Shown: positions 5,632-39,475, numbered from the stretch's first letter. The stretch is 64,000 nt of DNA from an uncultured Coriobacteriales bacterium (GCA_902464015.1 CABQHM010000010.1:345-64344), one strand, 5' to 3'. The notes: generated by a model from the sequence alone, not told the origin. Made by a program: numbers and translations.

Positions 5632-6510
5632 TTAATCCTCCACGGCGAAGCTGTTCTTGCCCGTGGCTTTCGCATCGTACATGGCGCGGTCGGCACGCTG
5701 GATAAGAGTCTGCGCGTCCAAGTTCTCGACCTTCTCCTGGTAGTACGCACCGACACTGAGGGTAACCCTCATGCCCCCGTCGACATCGATAGGCGGAATC
5801 GACCGCAGTCGGCACTCAAGCTCTGCCTCGTTTACATTTCGCAATGCGGCAACAAACTCGTCGCCGCCATAGCGTGCCAGAATGTCCTCGGCCGTAGGTG
5901 CCAGGGCCTCACGCAAGGCCTCGGCCACCCGAGAAAGCACTTTGTCGCCCGCAAGATGCCCCAGGCGATCGTTGATATCCTTGAAGTCATCGATGTCGAG
6001 CATCACCACAGAGAGCGGTGTGCCATCGAGAACCGAACGGTTGATGAGGATGTTCAGACGCTCATCAAGATAACGCCTGTTGGAAAGCCCTGTGAGGTCG
6101 TCGGTGTACATCTTGCGATTGAACGTGGTGACGCGATCGACAAACTCGTTGTTGCCGAACGCCGAGAGCAGCACATTATCGTTCGAGGCCATGACGACCT
6201 CCAACACGTATCGCCTGCCGTCAACCTCCACGGGTTGGGCCACCACATGATAGATGTCGTTACCGATGAACTCGAATTTTGAGTACCGTTCGCGCTCCAT
6301 GAAGCACCGCGCCGACAGGCAGTTCTCACAGCGGGCGGTCTTATTCCACACGTGGAAGCATCTGTCAGGCTGAGCACGAAGCTCGCCACCTTCAATGGTG
6401 TATGCCATCATGCTGATGGGGTCAACCAAGCGCACCACGTCGAACAGCTGAGACATCTCAGCCGCAAGCTCCTGGAAATGAGCTTTTTTATACTTCGGCA
6501 CTGCTTCCAT
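5632..6510 (-). CDS. Diguanylate cyclase (GGDEF domain) with Cys-rich N-terminal sensor region
   Basis: RYGGDEFVAAL active-site motif. The N-terminal CFHVWNKTARCENCLSARC carries four Cys. Start taken at MEAVPKYKK, preceded by a GGGGGA RBS. Confidence 0.85.
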   Translation of the reverse strand: MEAVPKYKKAHFQELAAEMSQLFDVVRLVDPISMMAYTIEGGELRAQPDRCFHVWNKTARCENCLSARCFMERERYSKFEFIGNDIYHVVAQPVEVDGRRYVLEVVMASNDNVLLSAFGNNEFVDRVTTFNRKMYTDDLTGLSNRRYLDERLNILINRSVLDGTPLSVVMLDIDDFKDINDRLGHLAGDKVLSRVAEALREALAPTAEDILARYGGDEFVAALRNVNEAELECRLRSIPPIDVDGGMRVTLSVGAYYQEKVENLDAQTLIQRADRAMYDAKATGKNSFAVED

Positions 6511-6638
6511 GAAACATCCCCCGCCCACGGTTTGACAAACGACGTGTATCTTAAACCCAATACCATGTGACAAAGAGGCATACCTGACCTTCCCATAGGG
6601 CTATCATTGCACCAACAAGAGGCGCAGGGAGGGTCAGC

Positions 6639-7424
6639 ATGCGTAGCGAAGACATCGCGGAACTGTCGGCAAGGGTGCTGCTCGCGTACTACAACAACGA
6701 TATCGAACCTTTCCTGGATGCATGCCACCCAAACGTGCTTTGGATTGGCCCCGGCGAAGGTCAAATTATTCAGACGCAGGAGACGCTCAGGAACACCTTC
6801 TATGCCGAGAAAAACAATCTAACGTTTGCGGTTCACGACCTCAGCGTCACCGCGCTTCCCACCGGAAGCCCCTCGGTCCTCGAGGTGGTCATGATGTTCC
6901 TTGTCGACACCTTCTGGCCAAATGGAGCAACCGGCCGCGTGAGCCAGCGAATCCACCTCAGCTGGGTAGGTTGTAAGGAGACGCCGCGCATTCTGCTGTG
7001 CCATATCTCAAACGCCATCGCATATGATGAGCGCGACACCATTTATCCCCTGCATTATGACGAGACCTTTGGGACAGAGATGCACTACGAAGGGGCTCCC
7101 GCCTCAGGCAGGGTCTGCCTGCGCGCAAAAGGGCACACGACGATGTATCTCGACCACGAGTGCATCATCTATGCAGAGAGTCACGACCGCCACACGCTGG
7201 TCCATACCTCCAGCGGTACCTACGAAGCCACCGAGTCGCTTTCGGCAATTGCCAAGCTCTACCAAGACTTGCTCGTGCGCTGCCATGCGAGTTACCTGGT
7301 AAACCCAGCTTTTATCTCAAGTATTTCGCGTTTTCAAGTTGAACTGCACGACGGAACAATCTTGCCAATCCCCGAGAAGAAATACACGACCATCCGAGCG
7401 CTTCTCGAGCAGAGGATGCACTAG
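6639..7424 (+). CDS. NTF2/SnoaL-like domain fused to a LytTR DNA-binding domain
   Basis: C-terminal HRHTLVHTSSGTYEATESLSAIAKLYQDLLVRCHASYLVNPAFISSI is the LytTR pattern. The N-terminal 120 aa are SnoaL/DUF4440-like. GGGAGGG RBS upstream. Confidence 0.8.
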   Translation: MRSEDIAELSARVLLAYYNNDIEPFLDACHPNVLWIGPGEGQIIQTQETLRNTFYAEKNNLTFAVHDLSVTALPTGSPSVLEVVMMFLVDTFWPNGATGRVSQRIHLSWVGCKETPRILLCHISNAIAYDERDTIYPLHYDETFGTEMHYEGAPASGRVCLRAKGHTTMYLDHECIIYAESHDRHTLVHTSSGTYEATESLSAIAKLYQDLLVRCHASYLVNPAFISSISRFQVELHDGTILPIPEKKYTTIRALLEQRMH

Positions 7425-7672
7425 AGAAACGGCAAAACCACTCAAGCAAAGTGGCAAGGATACACTGCGTGCCCTCCATGACGGCTATTTACAGCATCAA
7501 AGCGGGAGGAGCCATGGCAGTCGACGACCCCGATGGTCAAACGGATTGAAAAGCTACCGTGAATTATCCCTAAGCAATGGCCACCACGGCCAAGTATTAT
7601 ATCAAGCAAGTCCCAGCATCAAAGGCGCTGCGGCATCCGGACAGGCATGTCGCAGCGCCCCTCCTGCGATTT

Positions 7673-8683
7673 CTATCCCGCCCTACGCACGGTCGCGACG
7701 CACTTCTCGGGGTCATCAGAGAAGCGAAGGTACGTAGAGAGCTCGGACGTATTGCGAGCCTCGACACCGTCAAAGAGCGTGCGAGCGCCCAGGCCGAAGC
7801 CGAGTGTCTCCGTAGTGCCGGCTGCCACAAGTACCTCGTAGAGGCTCTCGTGACCAGGCAGGGCCCAGCGTCCGGGGAGATACTCGCCGAAGCCGGCCAT
7901 AGCAAGGGCCTCCCGCATGGCTGCACGTACCTGCTCCGCCTCCTCGGCGCTAGGGGTGCAGGCCGTGGCTGATACAGGTACGGCAAGGTTCGCCGCAGGC
8001 CTGTAATCCCCCAGGCGCACCTCGCTCGCGCCATAGGCCAAGACCACCTCCACACTCGCACGTGCCGAGGCGGGCGTCTGCCCCGGAATGCCCACGAGCA
8101 GCTCAAACGCAAGGTCCGCCTCGCGATCGGCCAGGCGCACACCATGGCCACACTCTGGCAGGGCACCAAGCACCATACGCGTCACGTCCATAGCGCTCGG
8201 ATCGAGCGCACGACCCAGAGCTCGCCACTCCTTGAGCGAACTCGTGGCGTAATCCATCACAATGCGGCTCACATGCCCGATGCGAAAAGCGTCCACCGAG
8301 GCAGCCGCCACCATGCCGGGTCGGGCACGAAGCACGATTTCGGCACCCGGTGCGAGGTTGAAGTTCTGGCACACGTCACGCAGAAGCGCCCCCAGCACGT
8401 CATCGGCCACATGCGCTGCCATGCCGTCGGTAAGCGCCACGGCCTGCACCTGGCAGTCGGCATAATCGGGGGCGCTGGCAAGCACCTCGCGGGCGAGCGC
8501 CCCCACATAGGCATGGCCATCCACCATGCGTGGGTCAAGCATGCCCGGCACGCCGTTGCCACCCGCTTCCGGCGAAAAGGGCATGCGCAGCTCGACTACG
8601 ATGGGACGCAAGCCCGTGTCCCTCGGCATCGTTTCGCAATCCACAACCCGCAAATCACCTTTGCAACCGCCGTTCGCACCCAT
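7673..8683 (-). CDS. HemN/HemW-like protein lacking the radical-SAM CxxxCxxC motif (paralog of 38402-39475)
   Basis: Family-like blocks VGIPGQTPASARASVEVVLAYGASEVRL and GFGEYLPGRWALPGH (HemN_C-like). The cluster-binding position reads VELRMPFSPEAGGNG with no Cys. The start is ambiguous: 8683, 8629 or further upstream. Confidence 0.6.
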   Translation of the reverse strand: MGANGGCKGDLRVVDCETMPRDTGLRPIVVELRMPFSPEAGGNGVPGMLDPRMVDGHAYVGALAREVLASAPDYADCQVQAVALTDGMAAHVADDVLGALLRDVCQNFNLAPGAEIVLRARPGMVAAASVDAFRIGHVSRIVMDYATSSLKEWRALGRALDPSAMDVTRMVLGALPECGHGVRLADREADLAFELLVGIPGQTPASARASVEVVLAYGASEVRLGDYRPAANLAVPVSATACTPSAEEAEQVRAAMREALAMAGFGEYLPGRWALPGHESLYEVLVAAGTTETLGFGLGARTLFDGVEARNTSELSTYLRFSDDPEKCVATVRRAG

Positions 8684-8744
8684 GCCCTCGCGCACTCCCC
8701 TCGAATCCACGCCCGTTTGCGACCGATGCCGTACAAAAAACCGA

Positions 8745-8865
8745 CACGTTTGCGTTTTGTTGAAAAAGTAGGAGGTACAGCCAAAGGCCGCACCCCATCT
8801 ACCTGCGATGATGCAATCACCCATTGAACGGATAGTCACCTCGCCGCAATTAAAACGCAAACATG
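8745..8865. repeat. 121-bp element with 14-bp terminal inverted repeats (copy A)
   Basis: cacgtttgcgtttt ... aaaacgcaaacatg. It has the same length and the same ends as 50193-50313. In-register internal matches: aggta, tctacctg.ga.gatg, gata. Confidence 0.7.
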
Positions 8866-8985
8866 CGGGATTTTAGAGCATTGGCGTGCCGGCTGCCCCG
8901 CCAATATCCGACGAAAGGGGTGCGGGCAGCGCGCATATGCACCGCCCGCACCCCTCATTAGCTGCTGTCTTACCCAGAGAATGCC

Positions 8986-10812
8986 TTACTCCGCCAGGCT
9001 GCCGAAGTGCTCGCCGAGCAGCGCGCCGAACACGGTGGCGAAGCCGATGGAAATGCCGTTCATCGGTGCGGTGTACTGCAGCGGGAAACGGCCGCCCGAG
9101 CAGTTGCCCGTGGCGAAGAGGCCCTCGATGGGCTCGAAGCGCTGGTCGAGCACCTGCTGGTTGCCATCGACGAACAGGCCGGAGAGCGTCACCAGCACGA
9201 TGTTGGCGTTGCGGGTGTTCTTCTCGGCGTAGAAAGGACCCTCGTTAATGGGCCACATCATGTCTGCGGGCTTGGCGTAATCCTCATCGCGGCCGGCCTC
9301 GGCGTAACCGGAGTAGGTTTGGACGCTCTCGACGAAGTTGGCCGCAGCCTCGCCCTCGAGACCAAGGTAACCCGCAAGAGTCTCAAGGTCGTCAGCAGCA
9401 AAGATACCGTTGACACCCTCGGCGCCGGCCTCGTAGGCCTCCTTCAGCTTGGCCTCATACTCGTCCATCTTGGCATCGGAAATGTCGGCGCAGTTGAAGT
9501 GACCCAGGGCCTGGTTCTGAGCAAACTGGCGCCAGTGGCCGTTGTCCCACACCTGGATAATGTCAGAGTCGATGGGCTGGCGGGCGCTCTGGCAACCGGC
9601 GACGAACGGCACGCCGAAGGCCTCGTTGCAGAAACGCTTACCGTACTTGTTGATCCAGCAACCGGCCGCAGCGCCGAAGAAGCCCATGGGAAGGGCACTC
9701 GTGGCACCGCCCATGGCGGCACGCGGGCCGATCTCCATCACGCCGCCGGCCCAAATGCCCATCTTGATGCCGTATCCGTCGCGGCCCGAGCCTGCAAGCT
9801 GGGTGTAGGGGTTGCACTCCTGGACCTCGGTGCACAGGGCGTTGTACATGTCGGAGTTGGCGGAGAAATCGCCCAGAGCCAGCACCACGCCGTACTTGGC
9901 GTTGAGTTGCTTGTAGGCACCGGTCTCATTGTCCTGCACGATGGCGCCGCAGACCTTGCCATCCTGCTTGAGGAGGACGACGGCCGAGGTGCCAAAGAGT
10001 GCCTGCGAGCTGGGGCTTGCCTCGATGCCCTTGTCGACAGAGGCAGTGCAGAAAGCACCAGAGGTTTCAAAAACACCGGAGCCAAGCTTCAGCGTGGCTG
10101 GGTAGGTCCAGAAGTAGCCCTTCTTATAGGCATAGTCGCTACCAGGCTGAATGGTGCACACCGATTCCACGGCAGTGATGTCGGGCTGGAGCTCCATCAT
10201 CCAGTCGACCATCTCGCCATTGCGCTGGGCAAACTGCTTGATAAGGTCGGGCTGGGCGCGGCCGGCGCTCTGAAGCTGGTACGAATCAATGAAGTCCCAC
10301 GGGTCAAAGATGTCCTTGGGCACGCCGAGGACCTTCTCCTGCCACTCGGAGTTGAAATGGCCCAGCTCGCCGCCGTACATGGTGAAGCCGTCCTTGTCCT
10401 GGGTATCGACGCCCACGACGGTCAGGCCTTTCTCAGCCGCCATACGGAAGCACTGCGAACCAGAGTAGCCCAAGCCGAGCACCACGACGTCGGCCTCGAT
10501 GGTCTCGGTGATGTCGGCCTCGTCGATGACGGGGGCCTCGCCCACCCAGTTGCGACGCATGGAGTAGTAGACGGTGTCGCCGTTTGCGTCAACACGGGCA
10601 ACGTCGTCCTCGCCGGAATAGGGAGGCGTGGTGGGCGCAGCGCTCATCGGGCCACCGGCGGGAGCGCCGCCCTCGGGACCGCCGGCAGGCGCACCTCCAT
10701 CGGAACCGCCGGCAGGCGCATCGGCCAGAGCCGCACTGGCGGCCACGGTCATCGCGGCGGCACCGGCCGCTGCAAGGAAGGAGCGACGGGAAACACGGGA
10801 AGCCTGGGACAT
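8986..10812 (-). CDS. Tat-signal FAD-dependent reductase (fumarate reductase/FAD_binding_2 family) with Gly/Pro-rich linker
   Basis: N-terminal SRVSRRSFLAAAGAAAMTVAASAALA, dinucleotide fold VVVLGLGYSGS, C-terminal GLFATGNCSGG. GAGGAGG RBS. Confidence 0.85.
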   Translation of the reverse strand: MSQASRVSRRSFLAAAGAAAMTVAASAALADAPAGGSDGGAPAGGPEGGAPAGGPMSAAPTTPPYSGEDDVARVDANGDTVYYSMRRNWVGEAPVIDEADITETIEADVVVLGLGYSGSQCFRMAAEKGLTVVGVDTQDKDGFTMYGGELGHFNSEWQEKVLGVPKDIFDPWDFIDSYQLQSAGRAQPDLIKQFAQRNGEMVDWMMELQPDITAVESVCTIQPGSDYAYKKGYFWTYPATLKLGSGVFETSGAFCTASVDKGIEASPSSQALFGTSAVVLLKQDGKVCGAIVQDNETGAYKQLNAKYGVVLALGDFSANSDMYNALCTEVQECNPYTQLAGSGRDGYGIKMGIWAGGVMEIGPRAAMGGATSALPMGFFGAAAGCWINKYGKRFCNEAFGVPFVAGCQSARQPIDSDIIQVWDNGHWRQFAQNQALGHFNCADISDAKMDEYEAKLKEAYEAGAEGVNGIFAADDLETLAGYLGLEGEAAANFVESVQTYSGYAEAGRDEDYAKPADMMWPINEGPFYAEKNTRNANIVLVTLSGLFVDGNQQVLDQRFEPIEGLFATGNCSGGRFPLQYTAPMNGISIGFATVFGALLGEHFGSLAE

Positions 10813-11118
10813 GCAGGTACCTCCTCTTCAGGGCCGAGGCGACAAGCCCGCGGCCGTATGACAGACCGCAGGCGCCGCACCGCTCGCAGTGCGCCGCCTG
10901 CACTGGACTTAAGAGTAGGCAAACCCGTCTGCAAGGCCATACCAAATTGTTATGAGCTATCTACCAGGTAAAATGTTTTACAACTCAAACGCGCCACACA
11001 ACATCTGCCACCCGTATCGCAGGTTTTGGAGTATGCGATGGTCGCTCTATCGCGCTCTACCAAATTGTTTTGAGAGGCCTTGGTCGCCCACAGCCGACGC
11101 CATCTTCGTCTGCCGCAC

Positions 11119-11160
11119 AAAAAAAGCGCACCTGCGGGTCTTAAACCCTGACAGGTGCGC
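11119..11160 (-). terminator. Rho-independent terminator after the SufBD-like gene
   Basis: On the minus strand: gcgcacctg-N17-caggtgcgc followed by ttttttt. Confidence 0.75.
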
Positions 11161-11196
11161 CTTGAGACAGAACGCAATCTTGTTTGCGGCGTTCTC

Positions 11197-12177
11197 TTAG
11201 CTCAAGAAGTCCTGGATAATCTGCTCCTCGGCCTCTTCCTCGGTGAGACCCAGGGTCATGAGCTTGATAATCTCCTCGCCGGCAATCTTGCCGATGGCAG
11301 CTTCGTGCACGAGCTGGGCATCCTCGGAGTCAGCCTCGATACCGGGGATGGCGCGGACCTTGGCCTTGCCCATGAGGATGGCGTCGCACTGCACGTGGCC
11401 GCGGCAGTCGGCGGCGCCGATGACCAGCGGGTTGAAGATCTGCTGCGAGTTGTCCTTGGCAACCGAGCGGCTGATGACCTGCACGGAGGAGCCGTCGCCT
11501 TCCATGACGACCTTCATGTTGGAGGTCGCGGTCTGGTCGCCTGTGGTCATGAGCTTCTCGGTGAGGGTGAGCTTGCAGTTGGAGCCCAGGTAGCAGTCGG
11601 TGTCGCGCACGGTGCTCGAGACGCCCTCGATCTGCACGGTGAGCATCTCCATGGTGGAGCCGTCCTCCATGTGGACCTCGGTCACCGGGTTGAGGATGCG
11701 CGCGCCCTCACCCGAGCCCTCGCCGTAGTGCTTCTCGAGGTAGACGACGCGGCTGTTCTTGCCCAGGAAGAAACGGTGGATGCCGTCGTGCTGGGAGTCC
11801 TCGCAGCCGTCGTTGTGCACGCCGCAGCCAGCGACGATGTACACGTCGGCACCCTCGCCGATGAAGAAGTCGTTGTACACCTTGTCGGTGAGGCCGCTCT
11901 CGGTGAGCACCACGGGGATGTGGAGCTGCTCGCCCTGCGTGCCAGGGGCGACGTTGATATCGATGCCCGGCAGGTCCTCCTTCGTCGTGATGACGATGTT
12001 CTCGGAGTTCTGACGCGCCGCAAGGTGGCCGTCCTTGCGAATGTTGATGGCGCCCGTGGTCTCGCCGGCCTTCATGTCGGCGATAATCTGAAGCATGTCG
12101 GAGGTGATGGAGTCGATCTCGCTCGCATCAAGGGCGCCCGCCTGGGCGGCCGTGGCCGTGTTCTGCTCTTCGCTCAT
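11197..12177 (-). CDS. SufB/SufD-family (UPF0051) Fe-S assembly-like protein
   Basis: 326 aa. The beta-helix-like C-terminal region (DAILMGKAKVRAIPGIEADSEDAQLVHEAAIGKI) is typical of SufBD. The start lies 2 nt after the upstream ABC ATPase stop. Confidence 0.75.
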   Translation of the reverse strand: MSEEQNTATAAQAGALDASEIDSITSDMLQIIADMKAGETTGAINIRKDGHLAARQNSENIVITTKEDLPGIDINVAPGTQGEQLHIPVVLTESGLTDKVYNDFFIGEGADVYIVAGCGVHNDGCEDSQHDGIHRFFLGKNSRVVYLEKHYGEGSGEGARILNPVTEVHMEDGSTMEMLTVQIEGVSSTVRDTDCYLGSNCKLTLTEKLMTTGDQTATSNMKVVMEGDGSSVQVISRSVAKDNSQQIFNPLVIGAADCRGHVQCDAILMGKAKVRAIPGIEADSEDAQLVHEAAIGKIAGEEIIKLMTLGLTEEEAEEQIIQDFLS

Positions 12178-12179
12178 CT

Positions 12180-12974
12180 CTAATCCTCCGGATTCAGGGA
12201 CCACTGGCCCAGCTCGGTGTCAACAGTACCCAGGCCGCACGAGACGTTGGCGGCATGGCGACGAATCATGAGGGTGGGGAACATCTCCTCGCGCGTGCCC
12301 TGGCGGTCGACGCGGCCGTCCTTGATGACCACGATGTTGTCGGCGATGTCCATGATGCGCTCCTGGTGCGAGATGATGACCAGGGCGTGGTCGGGCTGGT
12401 CGGCATGGAACTTCTGGAAGGTGCCGATAAGCCTGTCGAAGCTCCACAGGTCGATGCCGGCCTCGGGCTCGTCGAAGATGGCCAGGCGCGGGTTGCGCGC
12501 GAGCACCGTGGCAATCTCGATGCGCTTGAGCTCGCCACCGGAGAGGCTCTTATCCACGTCGCGCATAAGGTAGTTGCTCGAGCACAGGCCCACGGCGCTC
12601 AGATACTCATTGCACTCCTGGGCCGAGATCTTCTTGCCCGAGGCGAGCTTGAGAAGCTTGCGTACCTTCATGCCCTTGAAGCGGGCCGGCGCCTGGAAAC
12701 CGTAGCCGATGCCCATGCGAGCGCGCTCGTCGATGGTAGCTGCGGTGATGTCCTTGCCCTCAAAGACAATGCTACCCGACGTGGGCTTCTCGATGCCCAT
12801 GATGAGGCGTGCGAGCGTGGACTTGCCGCCGCCGTTGGGGCCGGTGATGACCGTGATCCTGCCGGCTTCGATGTTCAGCGACAGGTCATCGATGATGCGC
12901 CTGCCGGGAACGGGCTTTCCTGCGGCGTCGACGCCCGCCGGTGCCTCAAACGCGATGTTCTCGAGTGTGAGCAT
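12180..12974 (-). CDS. SufC-like ABC ATPase
   Basis: Walker A GPNGGGKST, signature LSGGELKR, Walker B AIFDEPEAGID. Translationally coupled to the SufBD-like gene. Confidence 0.85.
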   Translation of the reverse strand: MLTLENIAFEAPAGVDAAGKPVPGRRIIDDLSLNIEAGRITVITGPNGGGKSTLARLIMGIEKPTSGSIVFEGKDITAATIDERARMGIGYGFQAPARFKGMKVRKLLKLASGKKISAQECNEYLSAVGLCSSNYLMRDVDKSLSGGELKRIEIATVLARNPRLAIFDEPEAGIDLWSFDRLIGTFQKFHADQPDHALVIISHQERIMDIADNIVVIKDGRVDRQGTREEMFPTLMIRRHAANVSCGLGTVDTELGQWSLNPED

Positions 12975-36328: not shown

Positions 36329-38290
36329 ATGAGCAAGACCGTTTCGCGTCGCGCCTTCCTGACCAGCGCTGCAACGGCCACTGCGGGCATCGCCGCAGCA
36401 TCCGCCTTTGCAACCTCCGCCTTTGCTGCCGGTGGCCCCGGCGGTGGCCCTGGTGGCCCTGGCGGCCCCGCCAAGGAGGTTGTCTACGCTTCCGCTGAGA
36501 CCACCGACGACGGTCGCGTCAAGGGCTACTGCGGCCCTGGCGACTGGCTGGGCACCAAGCCCGAGATCGCCGAGGACCAGATCACCCAGACCTACGACGT
36601 CGACGTCGTCGTGCTGGGCGGCGGCCACGCCGGCCTCATGGCCACGCTGGGCGCCGTGGACGAGGGCTGCACCGTAGCCACCGTCGAGCAGCAGCCTTGG
36701 AGCGCCTTCGTTGACCTCGACGGCACCGGCGCTAACATGGGCGGCTGGTACGGCGAGGACATCGGCCATGTCAACTCGCAGTTCCTCATCGACCGCGGCT
36801 TTGGTCCCTACAACACCGGCGAGATTGCCGCCGAGTTCTGCAAGCGCGCCGCGGGCCGCGTGAACCCCGACATCATCAAGGCGTTCGTGCAGAATTCCGG
36901 CGCCATGTTCGACCGCTACAAGGAGGTCTACGACTCCTACGAGGAGGAGCGCAAGGCCAACGACTCCAACGTGCATCTCACCGGCACGCTCGTGGTGATT
37001 GACGGCGAGCCCGTGGCCGACGAGGGCGATTTCGACATGTCCAACATGTTCGATTACCCGCTGTGCAACACGCAGGCCGCATGGTCGGGCGCCAACGTGG
37101 AGTACCCCATCGAGTGCGGCGGCTACAAGACCTGGCCTTGCAACGCCCAGTTCTACGGCTACCACGGCAACGACATCGAGTTCGTGCACAAGTACATCAA
37201 GCAGTACACCGAGGAGAACGGCGCCACCTGGTACTTCGAGCACACCGGTGTCGAGCTCGTGCAGAACGAGGCCGGCGACGTGACGGGCCTTATCGCCACC
37301 GATGCCGACGGCAACTATGTGCAGTTCAACGCCGCCAAGGGCGTCATCCTGTGCGCCGGCGACTACATCGGCGACCCCAAGATGTGCTGGGCCCTGCTGA
37401 ACGAGGGCATGGAGTGGGGCGAGCGCTCCGGTGCCACCTCCGAGGACTGGGCGAGCGCCGGCTCGCGCTCCGGTGCCGGCCACAAGATGGGCATCTGGGC
37501 TGGCGGCATGATCGAGCCGACCCCCCGTGGCTGGATGGCCATCGGCGGCGGCGCAAGCGGCCCCTGGGGCACCTGCCCGCTGCTCACGCTCAACTCCGAG
37601 GGCAAGCGTTTCTGCAACGAGGGCGCCATCGCCCAGCTGCAGGCCGTCTGCCTGCGCCAGCCGGCCGGTCTGTCCTGCTACGTGACCGACGCCAACTGGA
37701 AGCAGACCGTGGGTTCGGCTCCCCTCGATCACGGCGCGCCCAACTTCGGCATGGACGACTACATGGTCCAGCTCGAGGCAGGCATGAACGCCGTTGAGGT
37801 GGGCAACCCCGAGGGCGGCTTCGTCGTCGGCGCCAACCTCGCCGAGCGCAAGATGATGGGCGGCACGGTGTACGCTGCCAACACGCTCGAGGAGCTGGCC
37901 GACATGCTCGGCTACGAAGGCGACGCCAAGCAGAACTTCCTCGACAGCATCGCCCATTACAATGAGCTGTGCGCCTCCGAGGACGGCGACACCGACTACG
38001 GCAAGGATAAGGCCTACATGGTGCCGATCGACACGCCTCCCTTCTACGGCGGCACGAGCAGCACCTCTCACTCCACCAGCCCCATGATGGTCACGATGAG
38101 CGGCCTTATGACCGACGCTGCCCAGAACGTCCTCAAGACCGACTGGACGAAGATTAAGGGCCTGTACGCCGCTGGCAACTGCCTGGGCGGCCGCTACGGC
38201 TTCGGCTACTCCACGCCCTTCGCCGGCAACTCGGTGGGCATGGCAATGACGCACGGCTGGCTCGCCGGTCACACCGTCGGCCAGCTGTAA
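36329..38290 (+). CDS. Tat-signal FAD-dependent reductase (FAD_binding_2 family) with Gly/Pro-rich linker
   Basis: MSKTVSRRAFLTSAATATAGIAAASAFATSAFA followed by AGGPGGGPGGPGGP. VVVLGGGHAGL. C-terminal GLYAAGNCLGG. GAAAGGA RBS. Confidence 0.9.
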   Translation: MSKTVSRRAFLTSAATATAGIAAASAFATSAFAAGGPGGGPGGPGGPAKEVVYASAETTDDGRVKGYCGPGDWLGTKPEIAEDQITQTYDVDVVVLGGGHAGLMATLGAVDEGCTVATVEQQPWSAFVDLDGTGANMGGWYGEDIGHVNSQFLIDRGFGPYNTGEIAAEFCKRAAGRVNPDIIKAFVQNSGAMFDRYKEVYDSYEEERKANDSNVHLTGTLVVIDGEPVADEGDFDMSNMFDYPLCNTQAAWSGANVEYPIECGGYKTWPCNAQFYGYHGNDIEFVHKYIKQYTEENGATWYFEHTGVELVQNEAGDVTGLIATDADGNYVQFNAAKGVILCAGDYIGDPKMCWALLNEGMEWGERSGATSEDWASAGSRSGAGHKMGIWAGGMIEPTPRGWMAIGGGASGPWGTCPLLTLNSEGKRFCNEGAIAQLQAVCLRQPAGLSCYVTDANWKQTVGSAPLDHGAPNFGMDDYMVQLEAGMNAVEVGNPEGGFVVGANLAERKMMGGTVYAANTLEELADMLGYEGDAKQNFLDSIAHYNELCASEDGDTDYGKDKAYMVPIDTPPFYGGTSSTSHSTSPMMVTMSGLMTDAAQNVLKTDWTKIKGLYAAGNCLGGRYGFGYSTPFAGNSVGMAMTHGWLAGHTVGQL

Positions 38291-38330
38291 AGGAAGACAC
38301 GGAACCTCGTCCGCTGTTGAATGATCCATG

Positions 38331-38372
38331 GGCCCCGCCCGCGCGGTTTTGGCGGGCGGGGCCTTTCTTCTT
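38331..38372 (+). terminator. Rho-independent terminator (or attenuator) between the flavoreductase and HemN-like genes
   Basis: ggccccgcccgc-N9-gcgggcggggcc followed by tttcttctt. Confidence 0.75.
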
Positions 38373-38401
38373 GATTGCCTCGTTTCGATTGGACGCACAC
38401 C

Positions 38402-39475
38402 ATGGATGCATGCATTGCACCTGCTACCGACAAACTTGTCGTCGACGTGGCGTTTCCCTTCACGCTGTCCACGCCCGCGTACGGTCCCAGTCGCCCGTTC
38501 ATGGGCAACCATGCCGCGAAGGCCGCCTATGTGGACGCGCTGGAGACCGAGCTCGCCTCCCTCGACGACGAAGTGCGGACGCGGCCTGTGTCTGCGGTAC
38601 GTCTCTCGGGCGGAGCAAGCATCATGAGCGCCGACAAGGTATGCCACCTGGTGCGACAGATTAAAAAAACGCTCACCATGGTACCGGGAGCGGAAATTTC
38701 CATCGACGTGGAGCCGCTGACCGTGTGTACGCCCAGCCTTACCGACTGGACGAGTTGCGGCATCACGCGCGTCAACCTTGCGGCCTTGTCCTGCGATGAC
38801 ACCGAACTTAGCGCACTTGGCGCTCACCACGCCCGCGAGCAGCTTCAAAATGCGCTGCTCTTCCTTGAAAAGTTTCACATGGCTAATGTGAACTTCGAGG
38901 TGCTATACGGCGCCCCGGGGCAGACAGAGGCGAGCTGGAAGCGCACGCTTCTCACCCTGGCTGGCGTCGACGCACCCCACATCAGCACGAGACCCCTGGT
39001 AGACGCCGCAAGCGACGCCGCCTGGACCGAGCAGGCCAGCGAGGCAAGCACGACGCAAGAGGGTGTCCCCGCTCCTGCCGCTCCCCTGCCCTCACCCGAA
39101 ACCCGACGTGTCTTCTATGAGCAGGCACAACGTATTCTCAGCGAGCGAGGCTATACCGAGGTTGCACCTGGCGACTTTGCCAAGTCGGGACTCGCTCCGG
39201 CATCGGGCGTGTTTGGGCCGCTCATGCGCGCAGGCGCCGACGTGCTTGGCTTGGGCGCAGGAGCCCGCAGCCGCCTTGACGGTTTCCTGTACGAAAACGC
39301 CTGCGACTACGACCTATATGTGGCCAAGTCCGCCGACTTCGAGGCGATTGTGCGCAACCCCCTGCGCGAGAACGAGCAATCTCTCCGCGCACGCGTCTGT
39401 CCGCCCGTCGAAAACCTCACCGCAGCCCAACGGTTTGAGTTCCTCGAAACCATGGGGGCATCGCTTGCGCGCTAA
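38402..39475 (+). CDS. HemN/HemW-like protein lacking the radical-SAM CxxxCxxC motif (paralog of 7673-8683)
   Basis: The cluster position reads VDVAFPFTLSTPAYG with no Cys. Family-like blocks VLYGAPGQTEASWKRTLLTLAGVDAPHIS and GYTEVAPGDFAKSG (HemN_C-like). Confidence 0.65.
   Translation: MDACIAPATDKLVVDVAFPFTLSTPAYGPSRPFMGNHAAKAAYVDALETELASLDDEVRTRPVSAVRLSGGASIMSADKVCHLVRQIKKTLTMVPGAEISIDVEPLTVCTPSLTDWTSCGITRVNLAALSCDDTELSALGAHHAREQLQNALLFLEKFHMANVNFEVLYGAPGQTEASWKRTLLTLAGVDAPHISTRPLVDAASDAAWTEQASEASTTQEGVPAPAAPLPSPETRRVFYEQAQRILSERGYTEVAPGDFAKSGLAPASGVFGPLMRAGADVLGLGAGARSRLDGFLYENACDYDLYVAKSADFEAIVRNPLRENEQSLRARVCPPVENLTAAQRFEFLETMGASLAR

Follow-up and report, generated by a model that had tools for sequence, protein, structure and literature searches.

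Why should a bacterium retain, directly behind the gene for a putatively exported flavin reductase, the gene for a HemN-like protein from which all catalytic motifs are gone? This question is raised by a locus in a 64,000-nucleotide (nt) stretch of DNA from an uncultured Coriobacteriales bacterium (GCA_902464015.1 CABQHM010000010.1:345-64344), the whole of which we refer to as the window. On its minus strand, a flavoreductase gene with a twin-arginine translocation (Tat) signal (8986-10812; R1) is followed, after a spacer of 302 nt, by a HemN-like open reading frame (ORF; 7673-8683; H1), as an earlier note on this DNA had reported, and both ORFs proved to be intact. Our comparative data indicate that H1 is a co-inherited accessory partner of R1 and that the two genes (module 1) belong to a sparse family of such modules in gut anaerobes. 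The features of the two genes are as follows.

8986..10812, minus strand: R1, FAD-dependent reductase of the fumarate-reductase / flavocytochrome-c type, 608 amino acids (aa), ATG start (ORF and PF00890 match)
10717..10812, minus strand: predicted twin-arginine signal peptide of R1, residues 1-32, with a hydrophobic core and an AxA-like ALA-DA end (sequence reading)
7673..8683, minus strand: H1, predicted cytoplasmic HemN-fold protein without Fe-S, S-adenosylmethionine (SAM) or heme motif, 336 aa, putative partner of R1 (ORF, AlphaFold2 (AF2) model, Foldseek)
8695..8702, minus strand: Shine-Dalgarno-like GAGGGGAG, 11 nt 5' of ATG 8683 (sequence; kept in the orthologous loci L055, L058 and L057)
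8537..8584, minus strand: degenerate cluster-binding loop of H1, residues 34-49, MPFSPEAGGNGVPGML (alignments; IPFCPxRCxxC in cluster-bearing relatives)

A predicted Tat substrate and a HemN-fold protein without catalytic motifs

R1 was matched by the FAD_binding_2 model (PF00890) over residues 108-575 with 78.8 bits (cut-off 20.4) and possesses the GxGxxG dinucleotide fold in the form of GLGYSG at residues 113-118, features that place it in the FAD_binding_2 family. NCBIfam models matched it below their thresholds only, with vinyl phenol reductase at the top (115 bits versus a cut-off of 600). The twin-arginine motif of R1 is SRRSFL at residues 8-13 (N-terminal sequences SRRSFLAAAGAAAMTVAASAALA / MSQASRVSRRSFLAAAGAAAMTVAASAALA), in agreement with the motif of Tat substrates, and the hydropathy profile (19-residue Kyte-Doolittle average) peaks at residue 12 with a value of 1.81. 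On the basis of this signal motif and hydrophobic region, R1 is predicted to be exported by the Tat pathway. A stretch rich in Gly, Pro and Ala lies between the Tat signal and the FAD_binding_2 domain.

Neither H1 nor its paralog H2, encoded elsewhere in the window, gave any Pfam match at E <= 0.01, the radical-SAM family PF04055 included. Among the NCBIfam models, H1 was weakly matched by HutW (TIGR04107; 39.9 bits), HemZ (23.6 bits), STM4012 (22.2 bits) and HemW (17.7 bits), the cut-offs of which are 205-400 bits, and these sub-threshold matches start past the position of the cluster motif. An AF2 model of H1 built from 43 sequences (predicted local distance difference test score (pLDDT) 89.8; predicted template-modelling score (pTM) 0.87) found the E. 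coli HemN structure 1OLT as by far its top match in a Foldseek search of the PDB (E 3e-19; TMq 0.73; 19% identity; 332 aligned columns). A profile of the H family searched against the PDB hit 1OLT with an E value of 9e-35, and the class C methyltransferase NocN (9p2u; 1.6e-22) was second. From its model, H1 is predicted to adopt the HemN-type partial TIM-barrel fold.

The motifs that go with this fold in HemN and HemW are missing. At the position of HIPFCxxxCxYC, H1 has the Cys-free RMPFSPEAGGNG and H2 has AFPFTLSTPAYG; the pLDDT of the H1 model falls to 67 at residues 41-50, and none of its seven Cys residues (at 7, 16, 77, 105, 178, 242 and 328) is part of a cluster motif. The GGGTP site reads TDGMAAH in H1 and GGASIM in H2, the HemN SAM ligands E145, Q172 and R184 are not kept in H1 according to the profile alignment to 1OLT, and in place of the HNxxYW heme motif (canonical PGHESRHNVKYW) H1 has LYEVLV (within PGHESLYEVLVA). 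Its C terminus falls short of the HemN_C domain, and a hydropathy scan revealed no hydrophobic segment, membrane segment or signal peptide. By sequence H1 is therefore neither a radical-SAM protein nor a HemW, ChuW/HutW or PsgB protein, and it resembles these families in its fold only. With the [4Fe-4S] cysteines, GGGTP and HNxxYW lost, H1 should be unable to carry out radical chemistry.

H1 is a functional gene under purifying selection and not a pseudogene. Its alignment with the orthologs uncovered no frame disruption, and the ratio of nonsynonymous to synonymous substitution rates (dN/dS) was 0.15, 0.21 and 0.14 in comparisons with orthologs at 90, 88 and 72% identity, respectively, and 0.19 in comparison with the in-genome paralog at 68% identity; R1 gave similar values (0.08-0.20). 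The disabling mutations that the earlier note had proposed to look for in 7673-8683 are hence absent under a proper alignment. That note had also regarded the start of the gene as ambiguous (8683, 8629 or upstream). The reading frame is open up to 8860. ATG 8683 and the MGANxGCKG residues that follow it are kept in L055, L058 and L057, as is the Shine-Dalgarno-like GAGGGGAG; this conservation makes ATG 8683 the most likely start, with ATG 8629 as an alternative that may still be used and that would leave the whole conserved core included.

Pairing of reductase and HemN-like genes within the genome and across two phyla

The 3.41-Mb assembly of this bacterium (G000) contains about 120 loci of FAD_binding_2-type reductases as judged by tblastn, eight of them in the window, and four relatives of HemN: H1, H2, a further cluster-less protein (H3) and one canonical HemW. 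The latter, with LYLHVPFCVSRCAYCGF, is encoded at C20:19800-21128 beside lepA and dnaJ. All three cluster-less genes are located directly downstream of one of the approximately 120 reductase loci, which argues that this adjacency is not due to chance. The two additional modules are the following.

36329..38290, plus strand: R2, paralogous Tat flavoreductase of module 2, reductase clade B (PF00890 match)
38402..39475, plus strand: H2, cluster-less HemN-like partner of module 2, 26% identical to H1
C14:17669-20726: third module, with H3 (C14:17669-18634) directly 3' of reductase R3 (C14:18936-20726) (genome scan)

Pairwise protein alignment gave 26% identity for H1 and H2 (E 1e-13) and 30% identity for R1 and R2 (E 3e-53). 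Modules 1 and 2 are thus old, in keeping with the earlier view that they are too diverged to stem from a recent duplication. H3 is 65% identical to H1, and the spacers of modules 1 and 3, repeat element included, share 77% DNA identity; these two modules appear to have arisen through a younger duplication that took in the spacer. Directly 5' of the third module, and on the same strand, lies a reductase-like ORF of 1156 aa (C14:20808-24278).

We assembled the genomic contexts of homologs from a collection of 5.8 billion proteins, 301 genomes of the class, GTDB species genomes (queried with an alignment of the module type to which R1 belongs, clade A, see below) and JGI metagenomes; loci were de-duplicated and counted only when they had enough flank (n = 33). 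An R-type reductase gene was present beside the HemN-like gene in 33 of the 33 distinct loci. The reductase gene precedes the HemN-like gene on one strand in 29 of them; one pair is divergent (L049), another convergent (L073), and two Eggerthellaceae loci (G084 L044/L053 and G082 L047/L054) have a LuxR gene in between, in the order H, LuxR, R. The host organisms are uncultured gut Coriobacteriaceae and Coriobacteriales, Eggerthellaceae-like genomes, and metagenome-assembled genomes of Oscillospiraceae and Acutalibacteraceae, so that two phyla share the pairing through their Coriobacteriia and Oscillospiraceae members. The distribution of the family is sparse, with 7 of the 301 genomes of the class containing it and one of 201 genomes of one Oscillospiraceae family containing its clade A type. 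In view of the gene order retained in two modules, the earlier note had suggested selection on the pairing, a notion that is strengthened by the recurrence of the same pairing in every locus examined and by the congruent trees described below.

Some variation in the composition of the modules was observed. A second reductase gene directly follows the HemN-like gene in L003, L062 and L064 (order R, H, R or R, R, H, R). Partnered reductases of Oscillospiraceae (L008, L063, L064) possess an N-terminal FMN_bind-like domain (YSGATFSS), and those of L063 and L064 a lipoprotein-type signal (SRREFLKG...LSACG); the partnered reductases of Coriobacteriia have a Gly/Pro-rich linker in place of the FMN_bind-like domain.

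Co-phylogeny of reductases and their partners

In a tree of 52 reductase sequences, comprising all long paralogs of the genome and the partnered reductases, the latter, apart from L049, fell into three clades with strong support: clade A with R1 and R3, clade B with R2, and clade C without any enzyme of the window. The sampled reductase-linked H proteins grouped into one clade apart from canonical HemW (support 100/99), within which one clade of partners corresponded to each of the reductase clades A, B and C (94/94, 99/99 and 100/100, respectively). This mapping of clades is one-to-one, and 200 label shuffles yielded no equally good fit. The patristic distances of R and H were correlated overall (Mantel r 0.83, p 1e-4) and within each of the clades (r 0.89, 0.83 and 0.85; exact p 0.003, 0.003 and 0.03). 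Since any two linked genes will give congruence within a clade, it is the match between clades that shows the pair to have diversified as a unit. The comparison of H and R trees recommended in the earlier note accordingly returned congruent topologies at both levels.

Among the paralogs of the genome, the partnered reductases are not one clade (approximately unbiased test, p 6.5e-5); the partner would consequently have been lost several times, moved between lineages or re-assorted early. We found no remnant of an H gene beside 13 unpartnered close reductase paralogs, even at E <= 10 with filters off.

Four residues are found together in 26 of 27 partnered reductases, R1 included, from all clades and both phyla, and in one of 32 unpartnered paralogs (C21:19510-21420). 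Their positions in R1 are:

about 10399, 10375, 9721 and 9532, minus strand: R1 residues Q138, Y146, R364 and W427 (alignment)

R364 presumably falls where fumarate reductases have their HPT active-site motif. The correlation of this signature with the presence of a partner rests on only three phylogenetically independent contrasts and is not significant alone; the link between the two is suggestive only. The second reductase of L003 also has the Q138/Y146/R364/W427 signature.

Cluster-bearing partners and apparent repeated loss of the Fe-S site

We searched 1.84 billion representative sequences with a profile and took the best 150 matches; among these, 141 were new, and 76 of the 141 carry CxxxCxxC. 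In a tree of 159 sequences, canonical HemW was a separate clade (51 sequences, all with GGGTPS), and the other 108 sequences formed a radiation with cluster-bearing and cluster-less members interleaved. Cluster-bearing HemN-like genes adjoin a reductase gene in L045, L049, the Oscillospiraceae loci L063 and L064, and the metagenome loci L078, L079 and L080, and they lie directly behind an R-type reductase in all of these loci except for the divergent L049. The motif IPFCPxRCxxC is kept in L045, L063, L064, L078-L080 and P0172, the last known from a 1-kb contig only, and the partners of L045, L068 and L079 passed the threshold of the Pfam model Radical_SAM (PF04055) with 32-36 bits (cut-off 29.5).

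In a tree of 41 sequences, the 8-member cluster-less clade of H1 (support 100/100) is nested in a clade of 25 members (96/93) that are otherwise mostly cluster-bearing and reductase-adjacent; H2 falls into a separate clade that is almost wholly cluster-less. Presence and absence of the cluster on this tree require at least 4-5 state changes, at least 4 of them forced by well-supported branches. In all, 43 of the 44 members of the H2 clade lack the cluster. Because a three-cysteine site is far likelier to be lost than to be re-created in place, we read these state changes as independent losses, and the nesting of the H1 clade among reductase-paired, cluster-bearing members implies that the pairing is older than the loss of the cluster. 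H1 and H2 thus appear to be convergent pseudoenzymes, each of which lost CxxxCxxC from cluster-bearing ancestors that were already paired with reductases. The earlier statement that H1 has the same degenerate features as H2 holds for the absence of the motifs from both proteins; the trees speak for convergent rather than shared loss.

Hairpins and a repeat element in the spacer

The following features were recognized between the reductase and HemN-like genes of modules 1 and 2.

8916..8955, minus strand: GC-rich terminator-like hairpin directly 3' of the R1 stop codon, then CCCTTTCG (17-nt arms, 88% complementary, 6-nt loop)
8736..8874, minus strand: small repeat element with inverted-repeat ends, between R1 and H1 (arms 8736-8758 and 8852-8874, 23 nt, 83% complementary)
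38331..38372, plus strand: intrinsic-terminator-like hairpin between R2 and H2, GGCCCCGCCCGC...GCGGGCGGGGCC then TTTCTTCTT (sequence and fold)

The hairpin behind R1 has an 18-bp stem in the minimum-free-energy fold and is kept in L055, L058 and L057; in the last of these, a T-A pair is replaced by C-G in a compensatory manner. The terminal-inverted-repeat element that had been noted in the intergenic space (8745-8865) was recovered with somewhat longer bounds, as given by the arms listed above. Inside of it is a second terminator-like hairpin (8796-8772), then CTACTTTTTC. L055, L058 and L057 have the element at the orthologous site, and it is retained even where H is only 72% identical. The genome contains another copy in module 3 (G000 C14:18681-18831, 80% identical) and partial copies at C19:9336-9487, C61:91-169 and C3:57801-57880; the C19 copy is located just 3' of another reductase gene, which has no HemN-like gene. 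The whole R1-H1 spacer folds with a z value of -5.5. Rfam gave no match for 7300-11300 at E <= 1, and a promoter scan of the minus strand gave no sigma-70-like site in the R1-H1 interval.

A strong hairpin (-20 to -41 kcal/mol) was present between R and H in 12 of the 12 cluster-less modules measured, the gaps of which amount to 87-302 nt; these hairpins occupy the same place and are mutually unrelated in sequence. The R-H gaps of cluster-bearing modules are 3-103 nt, and several are devoid of a hairpin. In module 2, the T tract is separated by 29 nt only from the H2 start codon (ATG 38402), and there is no room for a promoter past the hairpin in this module or in L012, L008 and L006. The spacer data are compatible with an attenuation of H through read-through of the hairpin. 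In five modules (window 36329-39475, L008, L012, L063 and L064), R and H are in one reading frame, 1-3 stop codons apart, an arrangement that may be due to chance in GC-rich DNA.

Neighborhood of module 1

Seven of the eight reductase-like genes of the window adjoin a LuxR or LysR gene; R1 does not, a peculiarity that the earlier note had pointed out correctly. In two other Coriobacteriales (L001 and L004), clade A modules are preceded by genes for a LuxR protein and PTH2, with two genes of the Peptidase_U32 family close by; the presence of LuxR in these modules suggests that its absence from module 1 reflects a local rearrangement. Convergent to H1 are genes for a GGDEF cyclase and a LytTR-domain protein (window 5632-7424), both of which are syntenic in L055 and L056. 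The LytTR gene (6639-7424) is the sole candidate regulator near module 1, and its synteny is seen in the closest relatives L055 and L056 only. Directly 5' of R1 on the minus strand, 11197-12974 encodes a SufC and SufBD-like pair that resembles a minimal SUF system for Fe-S assembly. We considered this pair as a part of the module and rejected it: it is syntenic in close relatives only and absent from L057, L001 and L004, and we judge it to be unrelated housekeeping.

A proposed binding role for H1 and its alternatives

The retention of position, fold and selection after the catalytic motifs had gone points to a role of H1 that dispenses with radical chemistry and is based on binding. Since HemW is a non-oxidase HemN-like carrier that binds its ligand without the cluster, this role would best be that of an escort factor, and since the ancestral partner was in all likelihood SAM-dependent and cytoplasmic, its action would precede the export of the reductase. 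We give about even credence to the proposal that H1, by prediction a soluble cytoplasmic protein, assists in the assembly of the exported reductase or escorts it as a dedicated factor without catalytic activity. The original partner would have been a CxxxCxxC-bearing HemN-like protein; several independent losses of its cluster would have followed, the lineages of H1 and H2 each having undergone their own. R1 would be folded and loaded with its cofactor in the cytoplasm and then be exported by the Tat pathway; H1, in which the binding role alone is left, would hold or mature the reductase precursor ahead of this step. H1 would probably be less abundant than R1, its expression depending on read-through of the terminator-like hairpin(s). 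What the comparisons show are the fold of H1, its missing motifs, purifying selection, the universal adjacency, the co-phylogeny and the independent loss of the cluster; that H1 binds R1 and serves it as a chaperone, and how much H is made relative to R, we infer from them. More tentatively, and with less than even confidence, one can envisage a so far unnoticed family of HemN-like radical-SAM proteins, dedicated to the flavin reductases that gut anaerobes export by Tat or as lipoproteins, whose members originally served a cytoplasmic maturation by a radical-SAM modification or cofactor step and decayed repeatedly to iron-free escort chaperones.

Several observations weigh against an assembly or escort function of H1. 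The contact between R and H is itself something that we infer, and AF2 found no confident packing of the two proteins (pTM 0.57, pLDDT 72) when it was given the read-through chain of R2, 37 aa and H2 (P0153, stops set as Gly), an outcome to be read in the light of a shallow alignment (5 paired and 34 unpaired rows) in which the reductase part was moderately modelled. The evolutionary rate of H within clades is 3-4 times that of R, as would fit an adaptor or relaxed constraint. Many close reductase paralogs of the genome have neither a partner nor a partner remnant, and such a helper is hence not generally required by this class of enzymes. The signature residues shared by the partnered reductases may mark a common substrate class rather than a shared interface, and the hairpins might do no more than terminate transcription, in which case H would have a transcript of its own.

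Other functions of H1 were weighed against the same data. Pre-assembled heteromers are exported by the Tat pathway, as exemplified by DmsB, which hitch-hikes with DmsA. H1 could likewise be a stoichiometric second subunit without a signal of its own that is carried out together with folded R1 as a part of the extracellular enzyme. The presence of a Tat signal on R1 and its absence from H1, as well as the universal adjacency and the co-evolution of R and H, would suit such a subunit; we nevertheless regard it as unlikely, because H1 has no redox cofactor motif and would thus be no electron-transfer subunit, the ancestral cluster/SAM-type partners need cytoplasmic SAM and reductant, the R-H hairpins suggest unequal expression, and the AF2 run on the R2-H2 chain, with its shallow alignment, gave no confident packing. 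It is a little easier to imagine, though still rather unlikely in our opinion, that the partner acts on a small molecule (e.g., a tetrapyrrole-like compound) in the pathway of the reductase substrate, the cluster-less forms being binding or carrier proteins or having a new non-radical activity. The best NCBIfam relatives handle heme (ChuW/HutW, HemW and HemZ), cluster-bearing members resemble competent radical-SAM enzymes, and the probable active-site residues Q138, Y146, R364 and W427 shared by partnered reductases suggest a common substrate class. This proposal is at odds with a reductase that would act outside the cytoplasmic membrane and a partner predicted to be in the cytoplasm, with the disappearance of the SAM-binding and heme-motif residues from H1 and H2, and with the lack of any transporter consistently present in the modules.

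A regulatory H1, which would sense a ligand or relay a signal together with membrane LuxR-type regulators to control the reductase locus, seems improbable to us. It would account for the order H, LuxR, R in the two Eggerthellaceae loci and for the LuxR or LysR gene in most modules; module 1, however, has no LuxR/LysR neighbor, the Oscillospiraceae modules with LysR or no visible regulator still have R followed by H, and H co-varies with the R clades and not with the type of regulator. That H1 stands behind R1 by chance, or is a functionless decaying duplicate of HemN/HemW, we consider hardly credible: although its catalytic motifs are lost, Pfam does not match it and H evolves faster than R, the frame is intact, dN/dS is 0.14-0.21, the predicted fold is confident, and the adjacency to a reductase in 33 of 33 loci from two phyla is accompanied by congruent trees.

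H1 in relation to known HemN-like proteins

HemW (YggW / RSAD1 type, TIGR00539) is like H1 in that it has the HemN fold and no coproporphyrinogen oxidase activity. It is a HemN-like heme chaperone or carrier for respiratory reductases whose cluster is dispensable for ligand binding, and its HNxxYW motif has been implicated in heme binding (PMC10114718). Unlike HemW, H1 is without CxxxCxxC, GGGTP, HNxxYW and a C-terminal HemN_C domain, is not the lepA-side housekeeping copy, and is tied to a flavoprotein instead of a heme protein. Both H1 (17.7 bits) and H2 (71.9 bits) fall short of the HemW model cut-off of 205.4 bits, and our trees place HemW as sister to the reductase-linked family.

A curated precedent for the loss of the Fe-S site in HemN relatives is PsgB (TIGR04419), termed 'HemN-related non-iron pseudo-SAM protein' by NCBIfam. 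Searched against the genome at E <= 10, the TIGR04419 model misses H1, H2 and H3 and finds only the canonical HemW, at 61 bits, plus another radical-SAM gene; it scored a cluster-bearing relative with 20.5 bits versus a cut-off of 300. PsgB is a lineage different from that of H1; we found no paper on it in the literature searched. ChuW/HutW (TIGR04107) is the best-scoring NCBIfam model for H1 and several cluster-bearing partners, with scores of 39.9 bits for H1 and 118-136 bits for three cluster-bearing partners that have it as their best model (cut-off 400). Having neither a cluster nor a SAM site, H1 should not be a methyltransferase, in contrast to class C HemN-like enzymes such as NocN. 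The redox-enzyme maturation proteins of the Tat pathway (TorD/DmsD/NarJ and NapD) would embody the principle that we propose for H1, i.e., a dedicated cytoplasmic escort, encoded beside a Tat-exported, respiratory-type reductase, which stays with the precursor until its cofactor is in place. This presumed likeness is a functional one: these proteins are all-helical or ferredoxin-like, serve molybdoenzymes and have no homology to H1, which matches none of their families.

We define the reductase-linked HemN-like family here by its place in the tree and its gene neighborhood, and H1 falls within it on both counts (tree split 100/99; R1 302 nt upstream). The pairing of a reductase with a HemN-like protein was not found described in the literature searched. 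Judged from the sequence comparisons, H1 belongs to a new branch of the HemN-like family that is linked to reductases; it is probably a helper dedicated to these enzymes that has not been described before.

Implications

The respiratory-type flavin reductases of gut Coriobacteriia, which carry tens to hundreds of them, convert molecules of dietary and host origin as well as drugs, and the report on these enzymes makes no use of the terms 'chaperone', 'accessory', 'radical SAM' or 'coproporphyrinogen' (bioRxiv 10.1101/2022.12.26.521950). The classes distinguished in a 2022 review on HemN-like proteins are oxidases, methyltransferases, cyclopropanases, ChuW, HemW and RSAD1, with no reductase-linked or cluster-free class among them. 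A reductase-linked partner would therefore add a new functional class to the HemN-like family, and the repeated loss of the cluster with the pairing kept would be a clean natural experiment in pseudoenzyme evolution. Heterologous expression of such flavin reductases is often difficult, and a dedicated partner would provide a candidate for their co-expression. An H partner in combination with the Q138/Y146/R364/W427 signature would serve as a genomic marker of a functional subclass of these enzymes. If H1 and its relatives indeed derive from a family that matures exported reductases, they would constitute the first maturation system for exported flavoreductases and would present a natural series leading from a radical-SAM enzyme to a chaperone.

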